A DNA stretch of 64,000 bases from the NCBI GenBank assembly GCA_965248835.1, contig CBDFLJ010000002.1, forward strand, positions 960,001-1,024,000. Reading direction: 5' to 3'. The stretch's first letter is position 1, and each line of letters begins with the position of its first letter. The stretch comes from Alphaproteobacteria bacterium (GTDB lineage: Bacteria > Pseudomonadota > Alphaproteobacteria > MPNO01). This document shows, one piece after another, positions 5,349 through 21,114 of the stretch. Both the position numbers and the translations under genes were made by a program. The notes beneath the pieces were generated by a model. The model saw only the letters and a list, made by a program, of their open reading frames with translations, did not search any database and was not told where the DNA came from.

Positions 5349-5824
5349 GGTACGCTTCCCGCGGTGACGGCCGAGACGGCTTCGACGATCTTCGCATAGC
5401 CGGTGCAGCGGCACAGGTTGCCCGAAATCGCGTCGCGGATCTGATTGCGGCTCGGCCGCGCGTTCGATGCCAGCAGAGGGGTCAGCGCGACGATCATGCC
5501 CGGCGTGCAGAACCCGCATTGCAGCGCCGCACCGTCGACGAAGGCCTGCTGCAGCGGCGTCAGCGGCCCGTCGCCGGCCAGGCCTTCGACGGTGGTAATC
5601 GCGAGGTCGGTGGAATTCGCCCCGATCGCCAGGCACGCCCGGATCGGCTTGCCGTCGGCCAGCACCGTGCAGGCCCCGCACACACCCTGGTCGCAGCCCC
5701 GCTTGGCCCCGGTGAGCCCCATCGCGCCGCGCAGGATGTCGAGCAGCGTATCGCCGGGCCCGGCAAGGGCCGCGCGGTCCTCGCCGTTGATCCGAAGCCG
5801 AAGGGCGATCCTGTCCTGGTTCAT
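5345..5824 (-). CDS. 2x[2Fe-2S] small subunit (CoxS/XdhC-type iron-sulfur protein)
   Basis: [29 protein letters not shown]; 4-nt overlaps with both neighbours. Confidence 0.95.
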   Translation of the reverse strand: MNQDRIALRLRINGEDRAALAGPGDTLLDILRGAMGLTGAKRGCDQGVCGACTVLADGKPIRACLAIGANSTDLAITTVEGLAGDGPLTPLQQAFVDGAALQCGFCTPGMIVALTPLLASNARPSRNQIRDAISGNLCRCTGYAKIVEAVSAVTAGSVP

Positions 5825-6699
5825 CGGCCGCGCCCCTCATGCAGCGATGCCAGCGCGCGCCGCAGCAAACGCGGGACGAGCCTGAGCCGGTAGGCAGCGC
5901 TCGCCCGCGTGTCGTCGAGGGGGTCGCACGCCGCCGCCAGTATTTCGCCCGCCGCGTCCGCGTCCGCGGCGCCGAGCCCGGTTCCGACCAGCATGTCCTC
6001 GGCCGCCGGCACACGCACCGGGACCGGCCCGGCGCTGCCGAGCGCCAGCCGGATCGATCTACATGCCGCGCCGTCGAACGCGGCGATCAGGGCGAGCGAC
6101 ACAACGGCGTAGTCGCCGTCGACGCGCGCGACCTTGTCGTAGACCGCCACCGCGTCGTCATCGCCCGGCGGCACATGCACCGCGGTGACGATCTCGCCCG
6201 GCATCAGTGCCGATTCCAAGTAATCGACGAAGAACCCATCGCTTTCGATCTGCCGCGTCCCGGCCGGGCCGGAGACCTCGACAACGGCATTCGCCGCGAC
6301 CAGGGCGGCCGGATAGTCGGCCGCCGGATCGGCATGGGAGATCGCGCCGCCGATGGTGCCCATGTTGCGGATCGCCGGATGGGCAATTGCCCCAGCGGCC
6401 TTGGCGAGAATCGCCTGGCCGGGCCGCATGCCAGCGAAGCCGGCCACCGCGCTGTGGGTCGCCATCGCCCCGATGACCAGCGTGCCATCGGCGCGCAGCG
6501 CGATGCGGTCCAGGCCGGGCAGCTTCTTGAGGCTCACCAATGACGACGGCTCGATCAACCCGGCGTTCATCATCGCAACCAGGGTCTGGCCGCCTGCCAG
6601 GCATCGCGCGCCGTCCTCGGACAGCAGCGCGTGCGCCTCGGCAAGCGTCTCAGGCTGGTGGAACCGCAAGCCCAACTCCGGTAATCCGGTCGTCATCAA
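5821..6699 (-). CDS. FAD-binding medium subunit (CoxM-like)
   Basis: LAGGQTL, IRNMGTIGGAISHADPAAD, DDTRASAAYR. Confidence 0.93.
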   Translation of the reverse strand: MMTTGLPELGLRFHQPETLAEAHALLSEDGARCLAGGQTLVAMMNAGLIEPSSLVSLKKLPGLDRIALRADGTLVIGAMATHSAVAGFAGMRPGQAILAKAAGAIAHPAIRNMGTIGGAISHADPAADYPAALVAANAVVEVSGPAGTRQIESDGFFVDYLESALMPGEIVTAVHVPPGDDDAVAVYDKVARVDGDYAVVSLALIAAFDGAACRSIRLALGSAGPVPVRVPAAEDMLVGTGLGAADADAAGEILAAACDPLDDTRASAAYRLRLVPRLLRRALASLHEGRGR

Positions 6700-6720
6700 C
6701 CCGCACCGTGCGGCGGGTCG

Positions 6721-7116
6721 TCACGCAAGCTTGCTTGGCCGGAAGCCGGCCGGCGCCGACAGGATCAGGTGCTCGACCAGGTTCGGGTGGCGCACCGCGA
6801 GCCAGGCGCCGAGCCACCCGCCGAGCGAGCTGCCGACGACATCGGCCGCCCGTCCCGGCAGATCTTCGATGAAACGCGCCGTGAGATCGGCCAGCGCCGG
6901 CATCGAGTCGACGCCGTCCAGGACCGGCGTGCCGTCGAACCCGGGCACGATCGGCGCCCAGACCCGGAAACGCCGGGCCAACCGGCGCAGCGGCGCGGAG
7001 ACCCGCATACCGGCAGCGGGATGCAAATAGACCACGTCATGACCCGTGCCGGCCACGAAATACTCAACCCGTCCGGCCGGCAGGTCGATCGCATCGCGCA
7101 TGAACTCGGATGTCAT
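6721..7116 (-). pseudogene. Alpha/beta hydrolase, C-terminally truncated (131 aa)
   Basis: YLHPAAG, PGFDG and VVGSSLGG nucleophile elbow; ends right after ILSAPAG with no Asp/His half in any frame before the next gene. Confidence 0.8.
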
Positions 7117-7161
7117 CGTTGTCCTTTCGTGCGGCCCGGGAGAAGCGTGCGCGGCGCGATC

Positions 7162-8169
7162 TTAGCGCGCCGCGGCGGCGATCCCCAGCACCGGGGGCAG
7201 TCCCGACGCGATGCGGACAAAGCCTTCGCCGCCGTCCGCGCTCGCCCAGATGTCGCCGTCATGCAGGCCGACATAGATCGCCTCGGGATCGTCGCGGTCC
7301 CCGGCGACGGCGCGCGGTGCCGCCTCGAGGCGGTCGGGCAGCCCGCCGGTGAGCCGGTGCCATGATCTGCCGGCGTCCTCGCTGCGGTAGAACGCGGCCC
7401 CAGGTCCGCCCGCGCGCGACCAATGCGGCGGCGGCACCTCGGCCCCGGCGGTGTAGAGAACGGCCGGCCGGTCCGGGTGGACCGCGACATGAGTCAGGTA
7501 GCGGTTGGCGATGCCCGCATTGACGTCGGCGAAGCTCTCGCCGCCGTCCTCGCTGCGGAACAGGCCGTCGCCCGAGGTCGTGACGACCGCCATCGGGTTA
7601 TCCGGCAGCACGGTGACGGTGTGGGAGTCGAAGTCGGTGCCGTCCTTGAGGTTGTCCCAGCTCGCCCCGCCGTCGGTCGAGCGTATGAGCCAGCCCTCTT
7701 CGACCGCGCCGAAGATGACGTCCGGGTCGGACCGGCACAGCCCGAGCCCCCGGACATGAGGCACATAGGGCGGGCCGGGGAAGGTCCAGTCCTTACGGGT
7801 CGGCAGCTTGCGCAGTGTCTCGAGCTCCGTCCAGTGGTCCCCGCGGTCGTCCGACCTGAAAATGCAGGCCGGCTCGGTCCCGACATAAAGCGCGCCGGTC
7901 AGCGGATGCTGGGCGAGCGAGTAGGCGTGCTTGTAGACCAGGCCTTCGTTCTTCTCCGCCCAGCTGCGCCCGCCGTCTTCGCTGCGCCAGACCCCGCCGC
8001 GCTCGGTCGCTGCCCACACGCGCGCCGGATCGTCGCAATCGGCCAGGATCCAGCGGACACCGCCCTTGTCCTCGAGGCCGAGGGCGTGCGCCTCGCTCGC
8101 CGCCCCGTTCGATTGTGTGAGAAAAACGCCCCGACCGGTCGCGACATAGAGGCTCGTCCCGCCACCCAT
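7162..8169 (-). CDS. BNR/Asp-box repeat beta-propeller protein (sialidase/Ycf48-like)
   Basis: Repeated SxDxGxSW motifs (RSEDGGRSW, RSDDRGDHW, RSTDGGASW, RSEDGGESF, RSEDAGRSW); no signal peptide. Confidence 0.88.
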   Translation of the reverse strand: MGGGTSLYVATGRGVFLTQSNGAASEAHALGLEDKGGVRWILADCDDPARVWAATERGGVWRSEDGGRSWAEKNEGLVYKHAYSLAQHPLTGALYVGTEPACIFRSDDRGDHWTELETLRKLPTRKDWTFPGPPYVPHVRGLGLCRSDPDVIFGAVEEGWLIRSTDGGASWDNLKDGTDFDSHTVTVLPDNPMAVVTTSGDGLFRSEDGGESFADVNAGIANRYLTHVAVHPDRPAVLYTAGAEVPPPHWSRAGGPGAAFYRSEDAGRSWHRLTGGLPDRLEAAPRAVAGDRDDPEAIYVGLHDGDIWASADGGEGFVRIASGLPPVLGIAAAAR

Positions 8170-8287
8170 GATGCCGTCTCCTTGCCTCGCATGCGGTGTC
8201 TGAACGTATCACAGCGCCCCGCGCCCCGCCGCGTCAACCCGCCTTGGTGGTCGTTCCACCGCGAATTTCGTCGGCATATGATGCCGC

Positions 8288-9072
8288 ATGAGCCTCGCGC
8301 ATCGCGTTCGCAGCGTGCGCCTCGTCGGCAGCATCCCGCTGGAGAGCGCAGATGCGGTGTTCGATTTGGTGGGTTCCCGCCTCGGCGGGCTATGCGCCAG
8401 GATCCCCGACGGCGAGACCGGGGTTCGCCGCAACTGGATCGGCTGGCAGCTCGGCGTCTTTGCCCGGCAGGAGGCGCTGGAGCAGTCCGGAGAACGCGAA
8501 CGAGCCTACCAGCTCCATCCGCCGTTCGTGTTCAAGCCGGGTTTCGAAGCCGGCGATCTCGACTTCGGCGCGCTCGGCTTCAGCCGCGAGGCGATGCGGT
8601 CCTATGCCGTCTTCGCCGCCAGACAGCGGCGCGGAATCTTGCCGCCGGGCGCGCGGTTCCTGGTCGCTATCCCGACGCCTTTCGCTCCGGTCTATTCCTT
8701 CACCGGATACGCCATCCAGGAAGCGGTCTATCCGGTCTACGAAAGCGCGGTCCTCGCCGAGCTCGACCGAATCTGCGAGGCCATACCGCAGGAACGGCTC
8801 GCCATCCAATGGGATGTCGCGACCGAGATGAGCATCTTCGAAAACGTCTACAACGTGCCCTTCGAGGGCGCGTGGGACATCCTTATCGACCGGCTGGCCG
8901 CACTCGGAGACCGCGTGCCGGCGGGCGTGGAGATGGGGTACCACTTGTGCTACGGCAGCATGAACAACCGTCATTGGAAGGAGCCCGAGGATCTCCGGAT
9001 GTGCGTCACCGTCGCGAACGCGGTTGCCGCACGGCTTGCCCGGCCGATCCAGTTCCTGCACATGCCGGTGCC
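8288..9072 (+). pseudogene. UROD/MetE-like (cobalamin-independent methionine synthase fold) protein truncated by deletion
   Basis: LVGSIPL, RIPDGETG, LAIQWDV, GYHLCYG (HxC Zn ligands); homology ends at FLHMPVP, so the distal Cys-containing region is missing. Confidence 0.75.
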
Positions 9073-10050
9073 GGCGACGTCACCTTCGAGCCCGTCGGGC
9101 TCAGGCGGCTCGGCCAAGACATCGTCGTCTGGCGCAACGGCGAGGGCAAGGTCAACGTGATCGCCGACCGCTGCCCGCACCGCGGCGCGCGCCTGTCGAA
9201 GGGTCGCGTCCTAGGCGGCGACATCGCTTGCCTCTATCACGGGCTCAGGCTGGACGGGAACGGCGTGATCACCGCGACCCCGCCGACCCCCGATTGCCCG
9301 TTCGTGGGCCGCAAGGCCGTGCGCAGCTATCCCTGCCGCGAGCTCCAGGGCGCGGTTTGGGCCTATTTCGGCGATCAAGATGACAAGGATCCGCCGGAGA
9401 TGATCCTGCCCGAGGAGTTCGCCTCAGAGGAATGGTCGTCCTTCCTTTTCAGCCAGGTCTGGGACTGCCCCTACCAGGCGGTGCTCGACAACCGGCTGGA
9501 TCCGATGCACGGCTCGTATCTGCATTCGGACAGCTACACCCTGGCTTACGGCAACAAGCAGGACCGGTTGCAGATCGCGCACACCGACAAGGGCTTCGTC
9601 GTCCGACGCGAGAACCAGATCGGCGTCAACATCGATCGGACCGAGCTGTTCCACCATCCGGACAACAACATCTGGATCCAGACCGAGATCCCGTATCCGG
9701 CCTCGGGCGGCGGCGGGTTTTTCCGGATCGGCGGGTTCGTGACGCCGATCGACCGGAAATCCTGCCTGTTCTGGGTGTTCCGCTCGCAGCGCTCGTCGGG
9801 CTGGCGCCGCGACCTGTGGCGGTTCCTCTACCGCAACCGGCTGGAACGGCGGCATCTCGACGTGCTCGACCAGGACCGCGAAATGCTGGAATCGATCCAC
9901 GACGACGCGCGCAACGACGAGTGGCTGCTCCAGACCGATGTCGGCATCACGCGCATGCGCCGCATCCTGCGACAGGTGGCCGAAAGCCAGTGCGCCGCCG
10001 CTGCCGCCGAAGCCGAAGCCGGTGGTCGAAGGATTCGCGGCTCGGGATGA
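9073..10050 (+). pseudogene. Rieske non-heme iron oxygenase alpha subunit lacking its N-terminus and start codon
   Basis: DRCPHRGARLS...IACLYHG Rieske motif and DNRLDPMHGSYLH Fe site; begins abruptly at GDVTFEPVG with no start codon before the Rieske domain. Confidence 0.8.
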
Positions 10051-10066
10051 GTGGGGAACCGCCGCG

Positions 10067-10903
10067 ATGACATTCGAAACGATAAAGTTCTCGCCGGCGC
10101 TCGGCGCGGAGATTCGCGGGATCGATCTGCGCCGGCCCCTGGATGCCGAAACCGTGGCCGCGCTGCGGGCAGCCTGGCTCGACCACCTGGTTCTGGTGTT
10201 CCGCGGCCAGGACCTCGACGAGGACGATCAGGCACGGTTCGCCGGTGCTTTCGGAACGCCCAGCGCGACCCAGAGACCCGACAAGCGCAGCGAGAAGCAC
10301 AACCCCGACCCGCGGATTCTGCTAATCACCAACATCCGCGAGGACGGCAAGCCGATCGGCTTTCTGCCGGACGGCGAACTGCAGTTCCACTCCGATTCGG
10401 CGTTTCTCGAACACCCGTTGATGGCGACCGTGCTCTACGCCGTCGCGATCCCGTCGCATGGCGGCAACACGCTGTTCGCCAACGCCTACATGGCCTTCGA
10501 GGCCTTGCCGCCGGCGCTGAAGCGCCGGCTGGACGGCCGAAAGGGGCACAACGTCTACGACTACACCACCCAGGTAAAGACCGGGAAGCTCGACCGAACC
10601 GGCTTGCCCCATGCCGTCCATCCGGTCATCCGCACCCACCCCGAGACCGGCGGCAAGGTCCTCTACGTCAACCGGCTGATGACCGAGGAGATCGACGGCA
10701 TGGCGCCCGAGGAAAGCACGGAGATCCTGGCCGCGCTGTTCGCGACCATCGAGCGCCCGGAATTCGTTTACGAGCACGTCTGGCGCCGTGGCGATCTGAT
10801 CATCTGGGACAACCGCTGCGTCCAGCACGCCCGGCGCGACTTCCCCGCCGACCAGACCCGCCTGATGCGCCGCATCGGCATCGCCGGCGATACGCCGCAT
10901 TGA
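10067..10903 (+). CDS. TauD/TfdA family Fe(II)/2-oxoglutarate dioxygenase
   Basis: LGAEIRGIDL, FHSDSAF (HxD), GGNTLFAN, HPVIRTHPETG, IWDNRCVQHAR. Confidence 0.95.
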   Translation: MTFETIKFSPALGAEIRGIDLRRPLDAETVAALRAAWLDHLVLVFRGQDLDEDDQARFAGAFGTPSATQRPDKRSEKHNPDPRILLITNIREDGKPIGFLPDGELQFHSDSAFLEHPLMATVLYAVAIPSHGGNTLFANAYMAFEALPPALKRRLDGRKGHNVYDYTTQVKTGKLDRTGLPHAVHPVIRTHPETGGKVLYVNRLMTEEIDGMAPEESTEILAALFATIERPEFVYEHVWRRGDLIIWDNRCVQHARRDFPADQTRLMRRIGIAGDTPH

Positions 10904-10910
10904 CGCGTGT

Positions 10911-12563
10911 TCAGGAGCCGTCGCCCGGCCCGGGCGGTGCGAGCCCGGCATTGACCTGCTCGGCGAGACGGCGCCGGTTGACCCGCATGGTCGGGCCGCG
11001 CGGAAAATCCGCGACCACCACCAGGCAGGCCGGGAACTTGTAGCGGGCGATTTCCCGGTCGCGGAGGAAGTCGACGATCTCCTCCAGCGTCACCTCGGCG
11101 CCCTGGCTGGGGATCACGCATAGGCAGGGAACCTCGCCCAGCGTCGGATCGGGGATGCCGATAACTGCGGTCTCGAGGATCTTGGGATGGTCGGCCAGGA
11201 TGTCTTCGAGCTCGAGCGGAAAGATATTGGCCCCGCCGCGGTTGATCATCTCCTTCATGCGCCCGATCAGCGTAACGTATCCGTGCGCGTCGATCGTCGC
11301 GATGTCGCCGGTCCGGAACCACCCGTCCGGACCCAGCGCGCCCCAGGCCTCCACCGTCCTCTCCGGGTCCCGGTAATAGCCCGAGCTGGTCGCGGCGCCG
11401 CGGACCAGCAATTCGCCCGGCGATCCCGGGGGCAGGGCGTCGCCCGCCGTATCGACGACCCGCACCTCGCCGCCCGGCACGACCTTGCCGACCGCCTCGC
11501 TGTGGCGGATCTGCGGCGGGTCCTCGACCGACATCTGGCCGAACGGACAAGCCTCCATCGCCCCGCCGGCCTTCACCAGGATGCACCCGAGCCGCTCTTC
11601 GGCCCGCTTGACGACCGCGGCCGGGATGCCGGCCGCGCCGGTGCGCACGATCCTGAGCGATCCGATGTCGTGGGCCTCGATCTCCGGCGAGTCGACCAGC
11701 CGGGCGACGATGGCCGGGGCGGTCATGACCGCCGTGATGCGCTCCCGCTCGATCAGGGAAAGCATGGTCTGCGGGCCGAAGCCGTCGCTCAGGACGAGCG
11801 CGGCGCCGCTGACAATCCAGGCGGCCCAGGCGTGGTAGCCGGGGCCGCCCGACAGGGGCGCGAAGCAGCCGATGGTGTCCCGGTGGTCCAGACGCATGCG
11901 CTCGGCCGCGCCGCGGCCCCACAGAAGCTCCTGCTGTTCGGGCCGCTCGACGAGCTTCGGCGTGCCGGTGCTGCCGCTGGTGACGACGAGCTTGGTGACC
12001 TCGAACGGCCCGAACCGCTTCTCGGCGGAAGGCTCCGGGCCGAGGGCGGCGTCCTCGAGCGCGATATGCACGCAGTCATCGGCATCGATCGTGGGCCCGA
12101 GGACGAGGATCTGCAATTCCGGCGCGCCCCGCCGGAGCGCCCTGGCGAGCCCCAGCGTATCGGTGTCGCGAAACCGTTCCGGCACCAGGATAGCGTCGGG
12201 CCGAAGGACCTCGATCACCGCTTCCAGCTCGCCGCGGCGCCATACCACTGGGACATAGACGCCCAGCAGCCCAACCCGCTTGAGCGCCAGGCGGACCAGG
12301 CAGCTTTCCGCGGTGTTATGGAGCTGGACGACCACCGGCGTGTCCCGTTCCAGGCCCAGCCGGTCGAGCTGGCGCGCCATGCTTGCCACCGCAGCGCGCG
12401 CCGCGGCCCATGTCAGCCGCCTGTGGGGGTCGACGAGCGCGACATCGTCCGGGCGCGCTTCGGCATGCCGATCCAGGATGTCGAGCGTCGTCTCATGCCG
12501 CCAGAACCCCTGCCGGACATAGGCTTCGATCATCTCGGGCGTGAAACGCGTGGGCTGGGACAT
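10911..12563 (-). CDS. ANL-superfamily adenylate-forming enzyme (aryl/alicyclic acyl-CoA ligase-like) with atypical A5 and A10 motifs
   Basis: Start MSQPTRFTPEMIEAYVRQGFW; TSGSTGTPK, WFRTGD, GRMKEMINRGGANIFPLELE. Confidence 0.9.
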   Translation of the reverse strand: MSQPTRFTPEMIEAYVRQGFWRHETTLDILDRHAEARPDDVALVDPHRRLTWAAARAAVASMARQLDRLGLERDTPVVVQLHNTAESCLVRLALKRVGLLGVYVPVVWRRGELEAVIEVLRPDAILVPERFRDTDTLGLARALRRGAPELQILVLGPTIDADDCVHIALEDAALGPEPSAEKRFGPFEVTKLVVTSGSTGTPKLVERPEQQELLWGRGAAERMRLDHRDTIGCFAPLSGGPGYHAWAAWIVSGAALVLSDGFGPQTMLSLIERERITAVMTAPAIVARLVDSPEIEAHDIGSLRIVRTGAAGIPAAVVKRAEERLGCILVKAGGAMEACPFGQMSVEDPPQIRHSEAVGKVVPGGEVRVVDTAGDALPPGSPGELLVRGAATSSGYYRDPERTVEAWGALGPDGWFRTGDIATIDAHGYVTLIGRMKEMINRGGANIFPLELEDILADHPKILETAVIGIPDPTLGEVPCLCVIPSQGAEVTLEEIVDFLRDREIARYKFPACLVVVADFPRGPTMRVNRRRLAEQVNAGLAPPGPGDGS

Positions 12564-12597
12564 CGGCGATACGCGGCGGCGCGGCGGCCTCAGCCGG

Positions 12598-12858
12598 TCA
12601 GATCCGCGGCTCGAAGTGGCATGTCCGCTCCAGCCGCCGCAACAGCGCCTGCCTTTCCTCTTCGGTGTAGCGGCGCGGCTGGACGAAGATGGCATCGACC
12701 GGGCAATCGAACTCGCACAGGAAACATCCCTGGCAGTCCTCGGCGTATTTGACCCGGGCCTTGCCGGCGTCCATGCGGATCACGTCGGTCGGGCAGGAGT
12801 CCACACAGGCGCCGCAGCCCGTGCACACCCTGTCGTCGATCCTGACCTCAACATGCAT
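12598..12858 (-). CDS. 2x[4Fe-4S] ferredoxin (AprB/AsfB-like)
   Basis: CTGCGACVDSCP and CQGCFLCEFDCP; 5 nt downstream of the flavoprotein gene. Confidence 0.92.
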   Translation of the reverse strand: MHVEVRIDDRVCTGCGACVDSCPTDVIRMDAGKARVKYAEDCQGCFLCEFDCPVDAIFVQPRRYTEEERQALLRRLERTCHFEPRI

Positions 12859-12863
12859 CGCGG

Positions 12864-14579
12864 TCAGCTCCTGAAGAACGGATGCAGGACCTTGGTGCGA
12901 TCCGGTATCCGGTGATGCTCATCGGCCGGGATGGGTTCCTCGAACAGGTCGAGCGCGCCGTTCCCGCCGACCCGCGCGAAGGTGTATTTGAGCCAGTCCT
13001 GGTTATCCATATAGGGAAAGTCCTCGCGCAGCACGTTGCCGCGGCTCTCCGTCCGCCGCTGGACGACGTGCAGCGAGATCTCCATGCATTGCAGGAAATT
13101 GCCCATGCCGAGGACCTTCGCGAGGTCGTGCGGCTCCGACGCCTTCATGCCCGGGACCAGCCGGCGGCGGATGTCCTGGACCTTGGCGATGACGGTCTCG
13201 AGCCGTTCGGCGTTCAGGATCTCGGTGATGTCGGTCCCGTAGAGCCCTTCGAGCGCGTCCCTTGTGGTCGCGAAGCTCGTTCCCTCGGCGCGCGCCATCG
13301 GTTCCAGCGTGCGGTGCGCAAGCCGATCGACCTGCTCTTCCGGTGCCTGGATCTCCGCCGTCGCCTTGGCCGCTTCGCTCGCCGCGCGGCCGGCATACCA
13401 GCCGCCGACCGCGCAGAGGTTGAGCGCCTGGGCGAGACCCATGAACGCCCCGTCGGACGTGTTGCCCGCGGCATACAGGCCGGGGATCGTCGTCGCGCCG
13501 GTCTCGGCGACACGGATTCCGGCGCCGCCGAGCGTCCCGCTCTGGAACGGCAGCATGGTCACGAACGGCACCGGATCGCGGCTCGGGTCGTAGCCCGCCC
13601 GCTCATAGGTGTTGAGCACGATCGGGACGACCTGCTTGTAGAGCCTGAGGTCCTCCGGGCTGAGCCTTGTGGCGTCCTTGTAGATCGGCCCACGGCCGGC
13701 GCCGTATTCGCGGATCACCTCGCGGGCGAGACGGTAGCGGCGGATGCGGTCGCCGCCGGCGATCTCCTCGCCGTTGCCGTTGATGAAGCGGACGCCCAGC
13801 CCGGCCCCCATCTCCAGCCCCGGCGCGGAGAAGAACTCCGCCGGGATGACGCCCCAGCCGGCCAGGAACTCCATCTTGGAAAGCTGCGCCCCTGCGCGGT
13901 AGGCCGCGGCCACGCCATCGCCGGTGCAGTTGATGGGCATGCCGTGGAAGCCCGCGCCGGCCTTGGGATAGGGGATGTGCACCGGGCCGGTGCACAGGAT
14001 CGTCGTCTTGGCGCGGATGACGTGGAGCGCGCCTTCGATGACATCGAAACCGACCGCGCCGACCACCCGCCCGCCGGTCGGGTGCTGGCCGTCGGAGGTC
14101 AGCAGCTCGGTCACCATCACGCGGTTGATGACCTCGACTCCGCGGCGCAGAGTTTCGTTGCGCAGCGCCATCATGAACTGCGGGCCGCCCTCGGCCATCA
14201 TCGCATTGACCGGGAACAGCGGGCCGACGGCCATGTCGACCCGCTGGATCCTGCCCGCATCCTTGATCCACTTGACCCCCCACCGGTCCATCAGCTGGAG
14301 CAGTTCGCCGGTGACCTTGATGCCCTGGCGCAGCGCGGTGATGTTGACCATCGGGTTGGTATGGGCCTTCACCCACCGGTCGAGGTCGTCGCCTTCCATG
14401 TAGGCCTGGAAGACCCCCGATGCGACGGAGCTGGTGCCGCTCCGGCCGTAGAAGCCCTTGTCGACCAGCAGCACCCGGCCGCCCGCCTCGCTGGCCTTTA
14501 TGGCCGCGCAGGCGGCCGCGACGCCGCCGCCCACGACAAGGACGTCGGCAGCATGCTCATGCGCAGTGGGGATCGCCAA
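12864..14579 (-). CDS. SdhA/FrdA/AprA superfamily flavoprotein (AprA/AsfA-like, non-covalent FAD)
   Basis: DVLVVGGGVAA, GRSGTS (no covalent-FAD His), CTGDG, PGLYAAGN, RTESRG...REDFP; TTG start. Confidence 0.88.
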   Translation of the reverse strand: MAIPTAHEHAADVLVVGGGVAAACAAIKASEAGGRVLLVDKGFYGRSGTSSVASGVFQAYMEGDDLDRWVKAHTNPMVNITALRQGIKVTGELLQLMDRWGVKWIKDAGRIQRVDMAVGPLFPVNAMMAEGGPQFMMALRNETLRRGVEVINRVMVTELLTSDGQHPTGGRVVGAVGFDVIEGALHVIRAKTTILCTGPVHIPYPKAGAGFHGMPINCTGDGVAAAYRAGAQLSKMEFLAGWGVIPAEFFSAPGLEMGAGLGVRFINGNGEEIAGGDRIRRYRLAREVIREYGAGRGPIYKDATRLSPEDLRLYKQVVPIVLNTYERAGYDPSRDPVPFVTMLPFQSGTLGGAGIRVAETGATTIPGLYAAGNTSDGAFMGLAQALNLCAVGGWYAGRAASEAAKATAEIQAPEEQVDRLAHRTLEPMARAEGTSFATTRDALEGLYGTDITEILNAERLETVIAKVQDIRRRLVPGMKASEPHDLAKVLGMGNFLQCMEISLHVVQRRTESRGNVLREDFPYMDNQDWLKYTFARVGGNGALDLFEEPIPADEHHRIPDRTKVLHPFFRS

Positions 14580-14846: not shown

Positions 14847-15344
14847 TCATTTGACCGGTATTTCACTGCAATGGCTGTGCCCATGCTTACCCTGCACGAT
14901 CTCGCGGATCGTTTTGGCGGTTTTCGCCTGTTTGGGGAAACGCACCATGGTTTCGAACGCTGTCAGATCGATCCATTTGAAATCGACGTGCAAATCCGAC
15001 TCGACCGTGACGGCTTTACTTTCGAGCTGGCAGGCCGCGCTCGGAACGAGCATGACCGTATCGTAATGGGCATCGAAATAGGTATTCACCGAGTCCAGGG
15101 CAAAAACCCGCACCGGGCGTTGACCGGTCTTTTCTGTCGGCTGTCGGACAAAGGCTTCGCTGAATTTTTCGCCTTCCCATATTTTGCCGGACACCGGCTG
15201 CCAGACGTCCGGTAGAACGATGTCGGGACGTCGTTTCAGGAGCAGGAATTCCATATCGCCGTCTGGGGCGACAAAATACGGATAGACATCAACATACAAC
15301 AGACCCGCCAGCCTAAGTCGGGACAGAAATTGATCAATTGACAT
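14847..15344 (-). CDS. NUDIX-fold protein (NudB-like) with degenerate Nudix box
   Basis: EFLLLKR, WQPVSGKIWEGE...RQPTEKTG, HVDFKW; AT-richer than flanks. Confidence 0.75.
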   Translation of the reverse strand: MSIDQFLSRLRLAGLLYVDVYPYFVAPDGDMEFLLLKRRPDIVLPDVWQPVSGKIWEGEKFSEAFVRQPTEKTGQRPVRVFALDSVNTYFDAHYDTVMLVPSAACQLESKAVTVESDLHVDFKWIDLTAFETMVRFPKQAKTAKTIREIVQGKHGHSHCSEIPVK

Positions 15345-15719
15345 GAATGACCTCCGTCTTCAACGTTTTCTGGGCAAACATACCGAGGAGTGACATCGGG
15401 ACATCACAAGATTCTCTCGGATGTCAGGAACGGCGGATTTGAAATCGTTGCATATCTGCAGTCTCCGAAACTTGTGGGGAATACGGCGCCTTCGGCGAAC
15501 TTGAAAGAGGATCCGTCCTCGAGACGAAACCGCACGCCGTCTTTCATGACGGATTGGACTTCCACGAATTGTTCGTCGACCTGCCCGAAGACGGGATCGT
15601 TGATTGTGAAGCGCACGCGGTCGCCGCGCTCAATGCACGCGCCGAGCCGTTCTCATTCCCTGGTTTCTCGGCGGCGGATTGCGGCGGCGGTCAAGAAGGA
15701 GATCGCCGACCGATCTGCG

Positions 15720-16100
15720 TTAGGGCAGCAGCGCTTTGTCCAGGAAGAAGAGCCCGGTCAGATAGGAGCGGACCGAGATCAGGCCGTTCGCGTTGTCGAC
15801 GACCTCGGAGTTGATCTGATCGCGCGCGAGCATCGTCCGGAGAACCGATGTCATGATCGCCGAATCGGCCTTCAACCCGGCGAGAAAGGCCGAAGCCTCG
15901 CCCCCGGCACCCGACAGCGCGTCGAGATCCTCGACGATGGCGGTCACGGCCGCTTCGAACTGGACCAGAAACGTCCTGATATGCGCCCCGTCGGCGCCGG
16001 CGCCTTCGTCGCTGCGGCCCTGGGCGGCATAGGCGAGCATGAACTCATAGGCTTCCTCGATCCTCTCGATATGCGCCCGGATGGCGTCCGGATCGCTCAT
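15720..16100 (-). CDS. Conserved-looking helical hypothetical protein, last gene of the periplasmic Mo-oxidoreductase operon
   Basis: MSDPDAIRAHIERIEEAYEFMLAYAAQG; start overlaps the cytochrome b stop (ATGA). Confidence 0.75.
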   Translation of the reverse strand: MSDPDAIRAHIERIEEAYEFMLAYAAQGRSDEGAGADGAHIRTFLVQFEAAVTAIVEDLDALSGAGGEASAFLAGLKADSAIMTSVLRTMLARDQINSEVVDNANGLISVRSYLTGLFFLDKALLP

Positions 16101-16690
16101 GCGCCCGGCTCCGGCATGCGTCCGGAGTTCGCAGTTTCGCGGCCCAGCACCATGGCCGCAAGCAGCCGCCGATGCTCGGGCAAAAACGCGAAATAGACAT
16201 GCAGGATGAAGAAGAAGATCAATAGCATCGATGCAGCACCGTGACAGACATAGACCAGCCCCCAGTCCCCATCGGAGAGAATCGACGGATCGCGGCGCCA
16301 CAACGGCGTATCGATCTTGGCAAGCATGATGCCGCCGGTTACCACCAGGACCAGGACCACCGCCGCGACCGACCAGTGGTAGAGCTTCTGGTTGAGGTCG
16401 TATTTGGCCGCGCCGTCTTCGGGCTCCCTCTTGAAGACCGTTCGCATGTCATCGCCCGTCGGCATCATGGTTCGGACGCCGTGCACCCAGACCGCCCGGT
16501 AGAGGTGAAAGAGGATCGCCAGCGTCAGCAAGACACCGGACATCCAGTGGATCGGAACCCAGTTGAAGCGGACGCCGAGGATCGGCAGGAACGCGGTTCC
16601 CAGCAGGACGATCACCAGCACCGCCATCGTCCAGTGGAACAGACGGTCCGGCCATTTGTGCCGAATGTCTTCAGCCGCGCTTCCCGACAT
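16097..16690 (-). CDS. Di-heme cytochrome b (FdnI/HyaC-like membrane anchor)
   Basis: Four TM helices with His in RLFHW, PIHW, LFHL, VCHG and ILHVY; KYDLNQKLYHW loop. Confidence 0.9.
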   Translation of the reverse strand: MSGSAAEDIRHKWPDRLFHWTMAVLVIVLLGTAFLPILGVRFNWVPIHWMSGVLLTLAILFHLYRAVWVHGVRTMMPTGDDMRTVFKREPEDGAAKYDLNQKLYHWSVAAVVLVLVVTGGIMLAKIDTPLWRRDPSILSDGDWGLVYVCHGAASMLLIFFFILHVYFAFLPEHRRLLAAMVLGRETANSGRMPEPGA

Positions 16691-16856: not shown

Positions 16857-17846
16857 TCAGGCGAGCGATCTGACGGCGCGCGCCGCCAAGCTCCCCATGA
16901 GCGGGATCTTGAAGTGGTTGTAGTTGAGCGCCTTCGCGCCGCGCGCGGCAACCCGTCGGGCCAGCGTTTCCAGCTCAGGCCCCGCCGTCTCGCCCTTCAT
17001 CAGGTCCTCGACCTCGCTCAACCGCCTTGGCGTGCATTGCACCCCGCCGCAGGCGATGCGCACATCGTTCACCTTGGCGCCCTCGGTCTTGGCCACCATG
17101 GCGATATTGACCAGGGCGAAGTCCCAGGTTTCGCGGTCGGCGACCTTCTCGAAATAGGACTTGGCGCCGGCCCATTTCTTGGGGATACGGACTTCCGTCA
17201 GGATGTCGCCCTTCTCGAGCGCCGTCATCCGGGTGATGTCGACCGCAGGCCCGATAAAGAACGCCTCGCTGGGCACCGTGCGCATCTTACCGTTGCGCGA
17301 GATCATCATTTCTGCTTCCAGCGCGACCAGGGCCGGCGCCGTGTCCGAGGGCGTCACCGCGACGCAGCGGGTGGCCTCGAACAGCGCATGCTCCCGGTTC
17401 ATCGCCGTCGGCGTGTTGGCGTAGCAGGTGTTGCCTCCGGCGCGGTAGCAGGGGAACCCGTCGCGGTAATAGGTGCAGCGGGTATCCTGGGAGACGTTGC
17501 CGCCGATGGTGCCGGCGTTGCGGATCTGCGGGCTCGCGACCTTGGCCGCGGCCTGGGTGAGGACCGGGAAGTTGTCCCGCAGCAGTGCGCTGTCCTCGAT
17601 TTCGGTCAGCGTGGTCGTCGCGCCGATTGAGACGTGATCGCCGCGGTCGCGGATTCCGTGCAGCTGCCCAAGTCCGCTGATGTCGATGACCGCCTGCGGC
17701 CGCTTATGCCGGTCCTTGAACCAGTCGAAGCTGTCCTTGCCGCCGGCGACGATCCAGGCGTCCTTGCCGTGCTCGTCCAGGAGTCGCGTCGCGTCCTCCA
17801 GGCTGGCGGGCGTATAGAGGTCGAACGCGTGCATGAAGTCAGTCAT
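16857..17846 (-). CDS. FAD-binding subunit with extra [4Fe-4S] insert (PaoB/HcrB-like)
   Basis: VASPQIRNAGTIGGN followed by RCTYYRDGFPCYRAGGNTCYA...RCVAVTPSD Cys motif. Confidence 0.92.
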   Translation of the reverse strand: MTDFMHAFDLYTPASLEDATRLLDEHGKDAWIVAGGKDSFDWFKDRHKRPQAVIDISGLGQLHGIRDRGDHVSIGATTTLTEIEDSALLRDNFPVLTQAAAKVASPQIRNAGTIGGNVSQDTRCTYYRDGFPCYRAGGNTCYANTPTAMNREHALFEATRCVAVTPSDTAPALVALEAEMMISRNGKMRTVPSEAFFIGPAVDITRMTALEKGDILTEVRIPKKWAGAKSYFEKVADRETWDFALVNIAMVAKTEGAKVNDVRIACGGVQCTPRRLSEVEDLMKGETAGPELETLARRVAARGAKALNYNHFKIPLMGSLAARAVRSLA

Positions 17847-17868
17847 TGGTCTGCCTCCGTTCCGCCGG

Positions 17869-20283
17869 TCACTGGCAGTTGGTCTGCAACGGCTTGTGGG
17901 ATTGCGGCTGTTTCGCGAGCACGTTGATGATCATGTCCGCAACGACGGGCACCCGGTTGAACGTGTGACCGCCGAGCGCATCCGAGACCGCGCTCAGATA
18001 GGCCGATGATGCCGAGCCCTGAATGGGCTCGCCGACGCCCTTGGCGCCGACCGGGTTCTGGGGGTCATGCGCCCCTTCCACCGCGAGCGAGGCCATCTGC
18101 ACGGGTACGTCCAGATAGGTCGGCGGCTTCGACTGGTAGTAGCCCAGGGCGTTGGGCCGCCCATAGGCCGGGTCGTAGACATAACGCTCGGCCGCGGCGA
18201 GCCCGAACCCCATCACTGCGCCGCCGCGGATCTGAGCCTCCAGCCCTTGCGGGTGCAGCACCTGGCCGACATCGGCGACGCCGAGATAATCGATCACCTC
18301 GACCTTGCCGGTCTCCGGATCCAGCTCGATCTCGATGAAGGCCGCGGCGAGAGCGGGGACCACCCCATTCTTGGGGAGCTTGTCCTTGGCAACGCCGATC
18401 AATCCCGTACCCGCGATCATCCTGGCGGCCGCCTTGGTCAACCCCTTGAGCTCGGGGTCGACCTCATGGGCGGCGTATTTGCCGCCGAGCTCGATCGCCT
18501 TCTTTGCCGCCTGGGCGAAGGTGATCGATCCGGCGCCGTTCTTGGCGACCACGCGCTCGTTGTCGAGCTTGTAGTCGTCGGGCGCGCCGCCAAGCATCGC
18601 CGCGCCGATCTCCAACAGCTTCTGCTTGGCGTCCATCGCTGCGGCGTAGTTGGTCCGGGTCATCGTGAAAGAGGTGTTGGATCCGAACTGGCCGATATTG
18701 AACGGCATCGCCTTCAGGCTGCCGCCGCGTTCGATGACCGTGTTGTTCCAGTCATAGCCCAGCACCTCGGCCGCAACCCGCGAGGTGGCCGCGTAGGAAT
18801 AGGTGCCGAGATTGCCGACGCCGGTGTGGATATGGAGGATTCCATCCGGCGTGATACGGACCATGCCGTCCCAGCCGTTATACCCGGCGGCGTGATAGGC
18901 CTGGCCGATCCCGATCGCTCTGATCTTGCCGTCTTTCTGTTTGCCGGCCTGCTTGACCCGCTCGGCATAGCCGAACTTCTCGGCAGCCTGCTCCAGCCCT
19001 TCACGGAGATAGGCGCTGGTCAGGGGCGCACGCTTCGGGCCTATCTTGCCGTTAGGTCCGCCACCCGGCGCGTTCGCCAGGCGCAGCGCGAGTCGGTCGA
19101 TCCCCAGTTCACGCGCCCCCTTGTCGAGGAGCGGCTCCAGGATATTGGCGGTCTGGTTTTCTCCCGGGCCCCGCTGGGCACCCTTCGGCGGCGTGTTGGT
19201 GAGCACCGGTATGCCGCGGAACCGCATGGCCTCGGGCTGCAAAATGACCGAGGACGCCATGCCGAAGTTCTGGAAGTCCCAGAATCCGGCGGTCGAGCCG
19301 TTGTCCTGCACGACATAGCTGTCGAGCGCCAGCACGCGGCCGTCGGCGCCGAAGCCGATCTTGACCCAGCCCTGGAAGCCGGCGCGCGCGGAGCCGTTAT
19401 AGAACTCGTCGGCGCGGCTGATCCGCATCAGCACCGGGCGCCCGTTGAGCTTCTTCGACATCAGGGCGGGCAACGCCATCAGCGGATAGGAATAGGCCTT
19501 GCCGCCGAAGCCGCCGCCGCAGAACTCGCTGACCAGGTTGAGGTCCGTCGGCTTGATGCCGATATATTTGGCCAGGCTCGGCACGGCGAAGGACGAGGAC
19601 TGGGTCGAGCCCCAGACATGGCACTTGCCGTTCGCCCAATAGGCGGCGGCGGAGCGCGGCTCCATCGCGTGATGCGCGTTCGCCGCGCTGACGAAGGACT
19701 CCTCGACGACGACCTTGGCTTTGGCGAAACCGCCCTCGACATCGCCATAGGACCAATCCGCCGCCGGCTTGCCCATCGGCAGCTTGTCGTCGCCGGCACG
19801 GGCGAAGTCCTTGCCGGTCCACTTGATCTCTTGCAACTTGATGCCCTGGCGGTTGGCGACGTTGCCGCCGACATGGGCGTTCGGCCCGTCCGGCCGCAGG
19901 CTGTCCAGCGGATCGATGCAGAACGGCAGCGGTTCCACCACCACCTTCGCTGCCGCGATCGCGTCTTCGGCCTGTTGCTCGGTCATCGCCGCCACGGCGA
20001 GGATCGGCTGGCCCACGAACACCGGGTAATCGGTCAGGATCGCATGCCCGGCGTCCTTGGGCTGCTTGATCTCGCTCGCCACCAGCACGCCGACGACCCC
20101 TGGCATGCGCTTGATGCCGTCGACATCGATCGACTTGACCTTGCCGTGCGGCATTGGCGAGGGGAAGGTCTTGAGGAACACCATGCCGTCGGCACGGAAA
20201 TCCTCGGCGTATTTCGCAGCGCCGGTGACCTTGGCGTGAAGGTCCGGCGGGGTGAAGTTCTTGCCGATCAGCGAATAGGCCAT
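17869..20283 (-). CDS. Molybdopterin-binding large subunit (PaoC-like aldehyde oxidoreductase)
   Basis: AKVTGAAKYAED, HHAMEPRS, CGGGFGGK, GAQRGPGE, GAKGVGE. Confidence 0.93.
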   Translation of the reverse strand: MAYSLIGKNFTPPDLHAKVTGAAKYAEDFRADGMVFLKTFPSPMPHGKVKSIDVDGIKRMPGVVGVLVASEIKQPKDAGHAILTDYPVFVGQPILAVAAMTEQQAEDAIAAAKVVVEPLPFCIDPLDSLRPDGPNAHVGGNVANRQGIKLQEIKWTGKDFARAGDDKLPMGKPAADWSYGDVEGGFAKAKVVVEESFVSAANAHHAMEPRSAAAYWANGKCHVWGSTQSSSFAVPSLAKYIGIKPTDLNLVSEFCGGGFGGKAYSYPLMALPALMSKKLNGRPVLMRISRADEFYNGSARAGFQGWVKIGFGADGRVLALDSYVVQDNGSTAGFWDFQNFGMASSVILQPEAMRFRGIPVLTNTPPKGAQRGPGENQTANILEPLLDKGARELGIDRLALRLANAPGGGPNGKIGPKRAPLTSAYLREGLEQAAEKFGYAERVKQAGKQKDGKIRAIGIGQAYHAAGYNGWDGMVRITPDGILHIHTGVGNLGTYSYAATSRVAAEVLGYDWNNTVIERGGSLKAMPFNIGQFGSNTSFTMTRTNYAAAMDAKQKLLEIGAAMLGGAPDDYKLDNERVVAKNGAGSITFAQAAKKAIELGGKYAAHEVDPELKGLTKAAARMIAGTGLIGVAKDKLPKNGVVPALAAAFIEIELDPETGKVEVIDYLGVADVGQVLHPQGLEAQIRGGAVMGFGLAAAERYVYDPAYGRPNALGYYQSKPPTYLDVPVQMASLAVEGAHDPQNPVGAKGVGEPIQGSASSAYLSAVSDALGGHTFNRVPVVADMIINVLAKQPQSHKPLQTNCQ

Positions 20284-20286
20284 GAT

Positions 20287-21015
20287 CTATGCCCTCCCAG
20301 CCGCGCGCATCACGCCGGCGAGGTAATGGTTGTAGGCGCCGCATCTGCACAGATTGCCCGACATCCCGCGACGGGCCTCTTCCGCCGTGGGTTTCGGGTT
20401 CTTTTTCAACAGCCCGACCGCCGCCATCACCTGGCCCGGCGTGCAGAAGCCGCATTGCGGCCCGAGCTCGTCGATGAACGCCTGCTGCACCGGGTGGAGC
20501 GTGCCGTCCGGTGCAGCGACGCCTTCGACGGTCGTGATCTTCTTGCCGCGGACCTGGTGGGCCAGCGTCGAGCAGGAATAGATCGGGATGTCGTCGGCCA
20601 GAACGGTGCAGGCGCCGCATTCGGCCCGATTGCAGCCGATCTTGGTGCCCGTCATGCCGAGACGGTAGCGGATCGTCTGGGCCAGCGTCTCGCTCGGCGG
20701 GACATCGACGCGGCGCGTCCTCCCGTTGATGTTGAGCGTGATCAGCCGCTCGACCCCGCGCACCGCCGCGCGCGCCTCGCCCGATTGCACCGTGAACATG
20801 TAGGCGGACGCCGAAACCGCGACCCCCGAACAGACGACGCCGCGCAGGAACGCACGGCGGCTGGTGCCGCTCGCCTGCCAATTCGCCGCGGGCAACTCAG
20901 CGAGATTGCCGGCGACTTCGGGGGTTGCCGGAATCCACGCGAAGTCGTCCGCCGGATCGGGCGGAAATTCGGGGGCTTCGAACGCCGCCGCCTCATCCTG
21001 ACGATTTTGGATCAT
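20287..21015 (-). CDS. 2x[2Fe-2S] subunit with twin-arginine signal (PaoA-like)
   Basis: SRRAFLRG Tat motif, hydrophobic stretch, ARA cleavage site; [29 protein letters not shown]; start codon choice uncertain. Confidence 0.9.
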   Translation of the reverse strand: MIQNRQDEAAAFEAPEFPPDPADDFAWIPATPEVAGNLAELPAANWQASGTSRRAFLRGVVCSGVAVSASAYMFTVQSGEARAAVRGVERLITLNINGRTRRVDVPPSETLAQTIRYRLGMTGTKIGCNRAECGACTVLADDIPIYSCSTLAHQVRGKKITTVEGVAAPDGTLHPVQQAFIDELGPQCGFCTPGQVMAAVGLLKKNPKPTAEEARRGMSGNLCRCGAYNHYLAGVMRAAGRA

Positions 21016-21114
21016 GACGTCTCCCTCATCGAAAACCCGTTGCCGACCGCTGCCGGGCTGCGGAATTATAAAAAGCGTACCCCGAACACCCTCATAGACC
21101 AAGGGAGATCGCGC

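Follow-up and report, generated by a model that had tools for sequence, protein, structure and literature searches.

The known chemistries of the SdhA/AprA flavoprotein superfamily are few, comprising those of fumarate/succinate, aspartate, adenosine 5′-phosphosulfate (APS) or 3′-phosphoadenosine 5′-phosphosulfate (PAPS), and the unresolved case of AsfA. In AprAB, an alpha subunit binding flavin adenine dinucleotide (FAD) is encoded adjacent to a small beta subunit with two [4Fe-4S] clusters, and the adenylate-forming enzyme Sat is encoded beside them; AsfAB, which belongs to arylsulfonate desulfonation, is likewise a flavoprotein and small ferredoxin gene pair. A different kind of module combines a ligase, a family-III coenzyme A (CoA)-transferase and a flavin reductase, as in the Cai system for carnitine (CaiC/CaiB/CaiA with FixABCX) and the Bai system for bile acids (BaiB/BaiF/BaiCD). 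Here we describe a locus of three genes in a 64,000-nucleotide stretch of alphaproteobacterial DNA (hereafter the window; positions 960001-1024000 of contig C2 of the source genome), which encodes a flavoprotein of the SdhA/AprA superfamily, a 2x[4Fe-4S] ferredoxin and an adenylating enzyme of the ANL superfamily. The adjacency of these genes is conserved across distant lineages, and the reaction that they support is very probably new for the fold. An earlier reading of the window made from sequence alone (the sequence-only reading) had known of no pathway containing such a trio; our literature searches found none either, and no paper was found that describes the trio or its flavoprotein family. 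One publication that was retrieved (PMC13416013), as far as its excerpted text goes, concerns a VAO/PCMH-type flavoprotein and was set aside as irrelevant.

A compact locus of three genes

The trio is arranged as follows (window coordinates):

12864-14579, minus strand: flavoprotein, 571 aa, TTG start; SdhA/FrdA/AprA fold, non-covalent FAD (GRSG)
12598-12858, minus strand: 2x[4Fe-4S] ferredoxin, 86 aa; predicted second subunit alongside the flavoprotein, in an AprB/AsfB-like position
10911-12563, minus strand: ANL adenylating enzyme, 550 aa, ATG start (MSQPTRF...); the longest open reading frame (ORF) spans 10911-12695

As the sequence-only reading had described, the three genes are close and co-oriented on the minus strand. 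According to the ORF coordinates, 5 nt separate the flavoprotein from the ferredoxin gene and 34 nt the ferredoxin from the ANL gene, and this spacing suggests that the three are co-transcribed. The ATG at 12563 was taken as the likely start of the ANL gene because the form beginning at 12695 overlaps the ferredoxin gene and because related proteins are 543-558 aa long. Searches against Pfam assigned the flavoprotein to FAD_binding_2 (E 1.3e-32, 113.9 bits, cut-off 20.4) and Succ_DH_flav_C (E 1e-10, 42.1 bits, cut-off 20.8), the ferredoxin to Fer4 families, with the motif CxxCxxCxxxCP present twice, and the ligase to AMP-binding (E 4.8e-61, 207.1 bits) and AMP-binding_C (E 1.4e-13, 52 bits), in agreement with the enzyme classes named before. 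A scan for promoters and terminators returned no promoter-like sites (1.2 expected from shuffled sequence) and four terminator-like sites (4.0 expected), none of them between the genes of the trio. The window had also been said to contain no sat or sdhCD gene; tblastn queries with Sat of the same genome, and with SdhC and SdhB of related loci, matched nothing in it at E≤1e-3.

Conserved adjacency of the flavoprotein, ferredoxin and ligase genes

To survey the distribution of the trio, we scanned 185,579 species, represented by one genome each, with an alignment of 11 flavoprotein sequences as the query. The scan returned 51 loci, every one from a metagenome-assembled genome (MAG), so that all carriers are uncultured. 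Fourteen of the loci are of the Defluviicoccus type (75-88% identity), and the others (38-50%) carry the labels Binatia, Deltaproteobacteria, Thermodesulfobacteriota, Syntrophobacterales, Solibacteraceae, Terriglobia, Chloroflexota, Dehalococcoidia and Hadarchaeota. The carriers thus include Defluviicoccus, known as a glycogen accumulator of wastewater, and Binatia. Downstream flank amounted to 1.4 kb or more in 45 loci, and the six with less were omitted; in 42 of the 45, an ANL gene lay within 3.5 kb of the flavoprotein gene, an association that spans Alphaproteobacteria, Binatia/"Deltaproteobacteria" and Acidobacteriota. Co-occurrence with the ligase, whose failure in close flavoprotein relatives would have spoken against the sequence-only reading, was therefore the rule. 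The ligase gene shares the strand of the flavoprotein gene in 17 loci (all 14 of the Defluviicoccus type, and L021, L039 and L043) and lies directly downstream in convergent orientation in 25. Since the 4.9-Mb source genome gives about 48 ANL-like tblastn matches, adjacency by chance would be expected in a few per cent of cases. The loci of close kin are not independent of one another; still, the lineages number at least four and the gene orders two.

The two-cluster cysteine motif of the ferredoxin adjoins the flavoprotein gene in 48 of 51 loci; in the other three the contig breaks off within the gene or right at it. In a metagenomic protein of 705 aa (P0055) the two are naturally fused, with the flavoprotein at residues 16-585 and the ferredoxin at 608-665. 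Adjacency and fusion together show, at the level of sequence, that the ferredoxin is the predicted partner of the flavoprotein. Proteins 1001-2855 aa long included no fusion of flavoprotein and ligase at E≤1e-40, a negative of little weight. Besides the ferredoxin and the ligase, no neighbour was stable across lineages in the annotated loci, where statements about neighbours rest on Pfam scans and phmmer and not on ORF clustering.

In a Terriglobia MAG (L043, positions 3347-13154), the trio and one additional ORF of 533 aa (5538-7139; no Pfam match at E≤0.05) stand between two Mutator-family transposase genes of the same orientation, which suggests that the module is mobile as a unit. Closer to the source organism, an orthologue of the flavoprotein at E≤1e-100 was present in 17 of 61 related genomes, the source genome included: in 14 of 19 other genomes of the same family (12 of 12 in one genus, and one of two in the genus of the window itself) and in two of 41 from other families of the order. 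Taken together, the conserved adjacency across distant lineages indicates that the flavoprotein, ferredoxin and ANL genes probably constitute one functional module.

The source genome (G000) consists of two contigs of high GC content, and its closest public relatives are Defluviicoccus/Rhodospirillaceae MAGs. Its estimated contamination is 9.51%.

The flavoprotein has the SdhA/AprA fold and lacks the known catalytic residues

By its domains and its fold, the flavoprotein clearly belongs to the SdhA/AprA structural superfamily. The AlphaFold2 model (predicted local distance difference test score 88.4, predicted template modelling score 0.92) matched FrdA/SdhA in Foldseek with E 2e-34 and the PAPS reductase structure 8a8o with E 9e-34, at template modelling (TM) scores of 0.81-0.83, the highest (0.83) being for 8a8o. 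A capping domain for substrate binding is present, and a domain for NAD(P)H is absent. In sequence searches of the PDB the top match was 8a8o_A (E 1.9e-24), followed by Mycobacterium smegmatis SdhA (2.1e-23), while classical AprA aligned in the N-terminal part only.

Membership of a named family within the superfamily was rejected in each case, as all NCBIfam cut-offs for AprA, AsfA (PRK08275), Sdh/Frd and NadB were missed: PRK08275, the AsfA-type model, gave 197.9 bits (cut-off 587), TfrA 150.9 (718), sdhA_frdA 137 (567.3), the AprA model PRK06854 118.8 (557), nadB 91.6 (452.75) and the aprA model TIGR02061 50.6 (641.75), the last matching the N-terminal part alone. The names attached to homologues are correspondingly generic, namely 'FAD-binding protein' and 'fumarate reductase' for flavoproteins in sequence databases ('class I adenylate-forming enzyme family protein' for ligases) and 'FAD-dependent oxidoreductase' or 'adenylyl-sulfate reductase' for clusters of relatives in the ESM Atlas. 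A score of 388 bits or more was reached by only 13 full-length proteins out of 1.84 billion cluster representatives, the next one scoring 320, which indicates that the family is small.

A quick maximum-likelihood tree was built with IQ-TREE from 38 rows (the window protein, 28 of 120 listed homologues, four paralogues from the same genome, four AsfA-like proteins and one Mycobacterium orphan) and rooted on SdhA from the same genome. A core family of 19 rows was recovered with support of 100. AprA of the source genome clustered with the AsfA-like proteins (SH-aLRT 99); this clade was sister to one that comprises the window family together with further orphan flavoprotein groups (88), and the joint clade was split from the Sdh/Tfr/NadB-like paralogues (98). 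The tree is indicative only, because its reference rows are few and its branches long (AprA 1.77). The flavoprotein had been called APS-reductase-like, and that description holds for its place on the AprA/AsfA side of the tree and for 8a8o as its best PDB match; it does not extend to the AprA and PRK08275 cut-offs, which are missed, or to the AprA residues, which are replaced.

To locate these residues, the AprA positions were mapped through AprA of the same genome and a HMMER alignment to 8a8o. In A. fulgidus numbering, we take the catalytic and substrate residues of AprA to be N74, W234, R265 and H398; the window protein has, in this order, Q58, a gap, P246 and L350 at these sites, and with these replacements nothing points to chemistry in which AMP is the leaving group. 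Position 58 varies across the family, and P246 is invariant in a narrower alignment (A2). At the site of covalent FAD attachment the protein reads GRSGT where SdhA of the same genome has TRSHT, bearing out the earlier observation of RSG in place of the FAD-linking His. The substrate set of Sdh/Frd/NadB, which presumably includes the His of HPTG, the catalytic Arg, His354 and Arg399 (E. coli SdhA numbering), is also lost: the HPTG His is deleted, the catalytic Arg is S251, His354 is P343 and the Arg of HGANRLG is absent. The C-terminal R-x-E-S-R-G motif of these flavoproteins is retained. Compared with the Sdh/Frd/NadB group, the window protein therefore shares the fold (Foldseek E 2e-34, TM about 0.8) and both Pfam domains, and differs in lacking the covalent-FAD His and all four residues of the substrate set.

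Because the known catalytic residues of both Sdh and AprA are replaced, those of the present family must be different ones. The obvious candidate is a family motif in the capping domain, P-x-E-F-x-(C/S)-A-P-G-(L/I)-E, at residues 246-256 (about 13812-13844 of the window, minus strand), which occupies the site of the Sdh/AprA catalytic Arg. Its variable position is Ser in the Defluviicoccus clade and Cys in most members. With fold and ferredoxin retained, none of the known catalytic residues left and an altered adenylating enzyme of its own alongside, the family very probably catalyses a reaction that is new for this fold.

A non-canonical ANL ligase

Domain content and the core motifs A3 (TSGSTGTPK), A7 (TGD) and A8 (GRMKEMINRGG), all intact, place the ligase in the ANL superfamily, with an intact ATP-binding core. 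It falls short of every curated cut-off. The models that it matches best are those of CoA ligases and of one aryl-acid adenylating enzyme: the top match, PRK06187, scored 300.5 bits against a cut-off of 476, and the models for cyclohexanecarboxylate-CoA ligase (283.7 bits, cut-off 792.3) and DHB-AMP ligase (256 bits, cut-off 723.55) were also missed. The nearest solved relatives are the salicylate-AMP ligase 5wm2 (E 4.7e-68), DhbE, EntE and PchD. From these aryl-acid adenylating and CoA ligases, with which it shares A3, A7 and A8, the window ligase differs at three sites: A5 reads GGAMEA and not YGxTE, the acid pocket has GGP where an aromatic H-N-(F/Y) is expected, and the Lys of A10 is replaced by Arg, PRGPTMR being paired with PRTSVGK in the HMMER alignment to 5wm2. 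The earlier suspicion of a non-standard adenylating enzyme was thus justified, and by these motifs the ligase is non-canonical.

The A10 exchange follows relatedness closely. In an alignment of the window ligase with 114 homologues longer than 500 aa, from 120 listed, every sequence at 49% identity or above (47) has Arg, and every one at 45% or below (68) has Lys. The ligases beside flavoproteins of the Binatia and Acidobacteriota types form a separate subfamily, 31-36% identical to the window ligase, in which the A10 Lys is kept (28 of 28) and no TGD is recognisable in 27 of 28 (DLQE or DLEE in a gap-free alignment). With two ligase subfamilies this far apart, the pairing of flavoprotein and ligase persists through deep divergence or through replacement.

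We know of no sequence feature that tells CoA ligases from ANL enzymes that release the adenylate or load a carrier protein. No carrier protein is encoded near the window, and the three PP-binding matches in the whole genome are all distant, so that loading of CoA or release of the adenylate is the most likely course for the ligase. Given this lack of a nearby carrier together with a CoA-transferase neighbour in three loci, formation of a CoA thioester is the most probable activity.

Related flavoprotein-ferredoxin pairs

The source genome also holds a genuine sat-aprB-aprA operon on its other contig (locus L064, C1:9000-26000), with all four genes on the minus strand (locus coordinates):

7234-9078, minus strand: aprA (969 bits)
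9078-9539, minus strand: aprB (199 bits)
9583-10368, minus strand: TcuB-like iron-sulfur (FeS) protein
10701-12059, minus strand: sat (490 bits)

Sulfite oxidation or APS metabolism is the probable role of this operon. Against TIGR02061 its AprA reaches 969 bits, compared with 50.6 for the window flavoprotein. The trio resembles AprAB in pairing an FAD subunit of the same fold with a small 2x[4Fe-4S] subunit encoded beside it and next to an adenylate-forming enzyme; it differs in that this enzyme is an ANL ligase and not Sat, and in the replaced active-site positions. The window ferredoxin is 41% identical to AprB of the same genome over 51 aa, covering the ferredoxin core only, and at 86 aa lacks the C-terminal tail of the 153-aa AprB. 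A second aprA copy of identical score lies near the other end of the contig (C1:2267319-2269133), and may represent either a true duplication or the overlapping ends of an assembled circular replicon.

8a8o is, in the excerpted text of its report, an APS-reductase-like PAPS reductase of Methanothermococcus thermolithotrophicus (PMC10322725). Like the window flavoprotein it is 571 aa long, and it has the same alpha/beta architecture with a ferredoxin-like beta subunit (TM 0.83, root-mean-square deviation 3.4). In contrast, identity is about 23%, the Arg of its ALRVKD and the His of its VGGHGQAG align with Pro and Leu in the window protein, and no sulfate-activation genes lie near the trio.

AsfA-like proteins belong to the same superfamily branch and are 25-27% identical to the window flavoprotein, reaching 1072-1123 bits against PRK08275. 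We examined four such loci, on plasmids of Cupriavidus (L068), Acinetobacter (L071), Sinorhizobium (L072) and Nostoc (L073). Each encodes a ferredoxin and a HEAT-repeat protein, and genes for DUF971, for sulfonate/nitrate-type ATP-binding cassette (ABC) transporters, and for TauD or NtaA/DmoA also occur. This content agrees with the asf cluster as described in the excerpted part of PMC4267179, and the label AsfA-like rests on that gene-cluster description and not on a reference AsfA sequence. No ligase was found in the four loci, and no HEAT-repeat, DUF971 or sulfonate-type ABC genes in the window neighbourhood, leaving the ferredoxin as the one element common to both. The AsfA-like plasmid proteins keep Asn and His near the AprA positions and do not keep the Arg. 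Their flavoprotein/ferredoxin/HEAT-repeat set is recurrent, and looks like an uncharacterised enzyme system of its own. The three genes of the trio are few enough for expression and assay, and its substrate, once found, would also illuminate the role of the sister AsfAB proteins.

Candidate reactions

The explanation that we favour, tentatively and at somewhat less than an even chance, is that the ligase activates a carboxylic acid, probably as a CoA thioester, and that an FAD/FeS heterodimer then performs a two-electron redox step on the acid. The flavoprotein, with non-covalent FAD, and the ferredoxin would form an AprAB/AsfAB-like heterodimer, passing single electrons between the FAD and an external low-potential partner by way of the two [4Fe-4S] clusters. 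The ANL enzyme would use ATP to activate the acid and most probably pass it on to CoA. The nearest relatives of the ligase and the island of molybdenum hydroxylase genes around the trio suggest that this acid may be aromatic or N-heterocyclic. The flavoprotein would then oxidise or reduce the activated acid by two electrons, for example by saturating or desaturating the C-C bond next to the thioester.

A CoA thioester is favoured because no carrier protein was found, because three loci have a CoA-transferase neighbour, and because a paralogue of the ligase is encoded next to a dienoyl-CoA-reductase-like enzyme. The closest curated and solved relatives of the ligase, CoA ligases and aryl-acid adenylating enzymes, are in keeping with it. 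The CoA-transferase, of family III, stands directly upstream on the same strand in three of the 14 Defluviicoccus-type loci (L007, L010 and L012), giving the order CoA-transferase, flavoprotein, ferredoxin, ligase. This order matches the combination of priming ligase, recycling transferase and thioester-specific flavoenzyme that characterises the Cai and Bai modules. The redox enzyme there is an acyl-CoA dehydrogenase or an old yellow enzyme (OYE), whereas that of the trio has the SdhA/AprA fold, and the transferase is missing from most trio loci, the window included. The paralogous ligase is encoded 16 kb upstream of the window:

C2:943324-944961: second non-canonical ANL ligase, closer to the Binatia-type ligase (35-40% identity) than to that of the trio, and within the source genome the nearest relative of the Binatia- and Acidobacteriota-type ligases

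It directly follows a gene for a 656-aa OYE/2,4-dienoyl-CoA-reductase-like flavoprotein, making another pair of ligase and flavin reductase in the island.

Several observations weigh against the thioester explanation. The CoA-transferase is adjacent in those three loci only, and its orthologue in the source genome lies on the other contig. As the substrate-binding and protonating residues of Sdh/Frd/NadB are missing, chemistry on a C=C bond cannot run in the manner of fumarate reductase. No enoyl-CoA hydratase, thiolase or acyl-CoA dehydrogenase gene was found beside the trio in the annotated loci. Both ligase subfamilies are altered at motifs that contact the nucleotide (Arg in place of the A10 Lys, or an A7 without recognisable TGD), which is not expected of an ordinary CoA ligase. 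Finally, the flavoprotein and ferredoxin occur without a ligase in three loci despite ample flank (L020, L022 and L055), and also in a genome of the same order (G033).

If the thioester were bypassed, the ligase could, as the sequence-only reading had suggested, follow the logic of Sat and AprAB, making an acyl- or sulfonyl-adenylate that the flavoprotein-ferredoxin pair cleaves reductively with AMP leaving; in reverse, an aldehyde or sulfinate would be oxidised onto AMP, the ligase then forming ATP. We regard the two directions, taken jointly, as quite unlikely. They gain from the position of the family as sister to AprA and the AsfA-like group (joint clade SH-aLRT 98), from 8a8o_A as the top PDB match by sequence and by TM-score, from the AprB-like two-cluster ferredoxin, and from a ligase that occupies the place of Sat in 42 of 45 loci. 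The changed AMP-contacting residues of both ligase subfamilies might reflect unusual handling of the adenylate, and genes for processing CoA esters are not found nearby. Against this stand the loss of all AprA active-site residues (Q58, gap, P246, L350), AprA-model scores that are far too low (50.6 versus 641.75 and 118.8 versus 557 bits), a ligase on the opposite strand in 25 loci and, as a weak argument, the lack of a flavoprotein-ligase fusion. Acyl-adenylates are, in addition, normally labile and enzyme-bound, unlike free APS. The boldest version, in which the pair acts directly on the adenylate of an organic or organosulfur acid supplied by its dedicated, altered ANL enzyme, either yielding an aldehyde or sulfinate without a thioester or working oxidatively with recovery of ATP, we consider very unlikely.

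The redox step could also precede activation. A NadB-like amine or amino-acid dehydrogenase would oxidise a C-N bond with the ferredoxin as acceptor, an OCD/mu-crystallin protein would handle the (cyclic) imine, and the ligase would activate the acid later. Such a route is unlikely, and is suggested by an OCD/mu-crystallin gene near the module in 23 of 51 loci, comprising 20 of the Binatia type and three independent arrangements (L020, L021 and L022). It also draws on recurrent amidase or amidohydrolase genes (L043, L049 and G033) and on two ligase-less loci. In L020, from a Chloroflexota MAG, an OCD-family gene precedes the flavoprotein and genes for MTHFR, gcvT, gcvH and gcvP follow, and in L045, from a Hadarchaeota MAG, two MtmB-like methyltransferase genes precede the flavoprotein; these contexts hint at one-carbon or methylated-amine metabolism in the variants without a ligase. 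However, the 20 Binatia-type loci are close kin and not independent, no OCD gene was found in the Defluviicoccus-type loci (0 of the 13 others, nor in the window), the NadB substrate residues are absent, and the nadB model is far from its cut-off (91.6 versus 452.75 bits). A purely electron-transferring pair, a 'reductase/ferredoxin' as the literature describes AsfAB, would feed or drain electrons for an oxygenase or molybdenum hydroxylase of the island, with the ligase as a mere pathway neighbour. Related orphan pairs do occur among Rieske dioxygenase genes (on a Mycobacterium plasmid, L069, and in L022), and XDH-type operons flank the trio on both sides in the window. Yet the flavoprotein has a capping domain for a substrate and no NAD(P)H domain, the sole lineage-stable neighbour is the ligase and not an oxygenase, and the module between transposase genes in L043 carries just one extra ORF, so that this role, too, is distinctly improbable. 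The remaining probability falls to something else.

Genes around the trio

The immediate surroundings of the trio in the window are:

ending at 10903: TauD-family gene (Pfam TauD, 1e-64), convergent with the ANL gene (stop at 10911), the two stops being 7 nt apart
14847-15344: NUDIX gene, upstream of the flavoprotein gene and separated from it by 267 nt
16097-16690: cytochrome b561 gene, following the molybdenum hydroxylase set at 16857-21102

The TauD gene had been taken as a hint of organosulfur chemistry. By phmmer it adjoins the trio in the window only (0 of 13 other Defluviicoccus-type loci), and the source genome has 22 TauD-family matches, so the gene was dropped as a clue to the substrate. 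These 22 TauD/TfdA-family tblastn matches (E≤1e-8), mostly about 46-50% identical to the window copy, represent an unusually large expansion. For the NUDIX gene, phmmer found no counterpart in the other Defluviicoccus-type loci; the unrelated locus L022 has one two genes upstream. Window ORFs at 8288-9160 and 15390-16196 gave no Pfam match at E≤0.05.

The trio sits between two XDH-type molybdenum hydroxylase gene sets, at 3039-6699 and 16857-21102, and genes of this type are also present in L015, L016 and L018. Elsewhere, genes for NMT1-type binding proteins and for class II aldolases were found in six loci each, and at the G033 locus three NMT1 genes are accompanied by genes for a LysR regulator and an amidase. 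The island around the window contains three XDH/CODH-type molybdenum hydroxylase sets, one of them followed by CoxG, as well as TRAP transporters. Upstream of the window (L074, C2:934001-954000) are genes for an NMT1-type binding protein, an amidase, a GMC oxidoreductase, an alpha/beta hydrolase, a DUF1989 protein, a cupin and an XDH-type molybdenum enzyme. From its gene content, the island looks like one for the catabolism of N-heterocycles or aromatic acids.

Within the window, a 131-aa ORF on the minus strand (6721-7116) covers positions 22-102 of the 245-position alpha/beta-hydrolase profile; standing between a BNR-repeat gene and the molybdenum hydroxylase operon, it may be a truncated gene. 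Just before the start of the window, a gene for an IS630-type transposase with HTH and DDE_3 domains (C2:958967-959972) lies at the island's edge.

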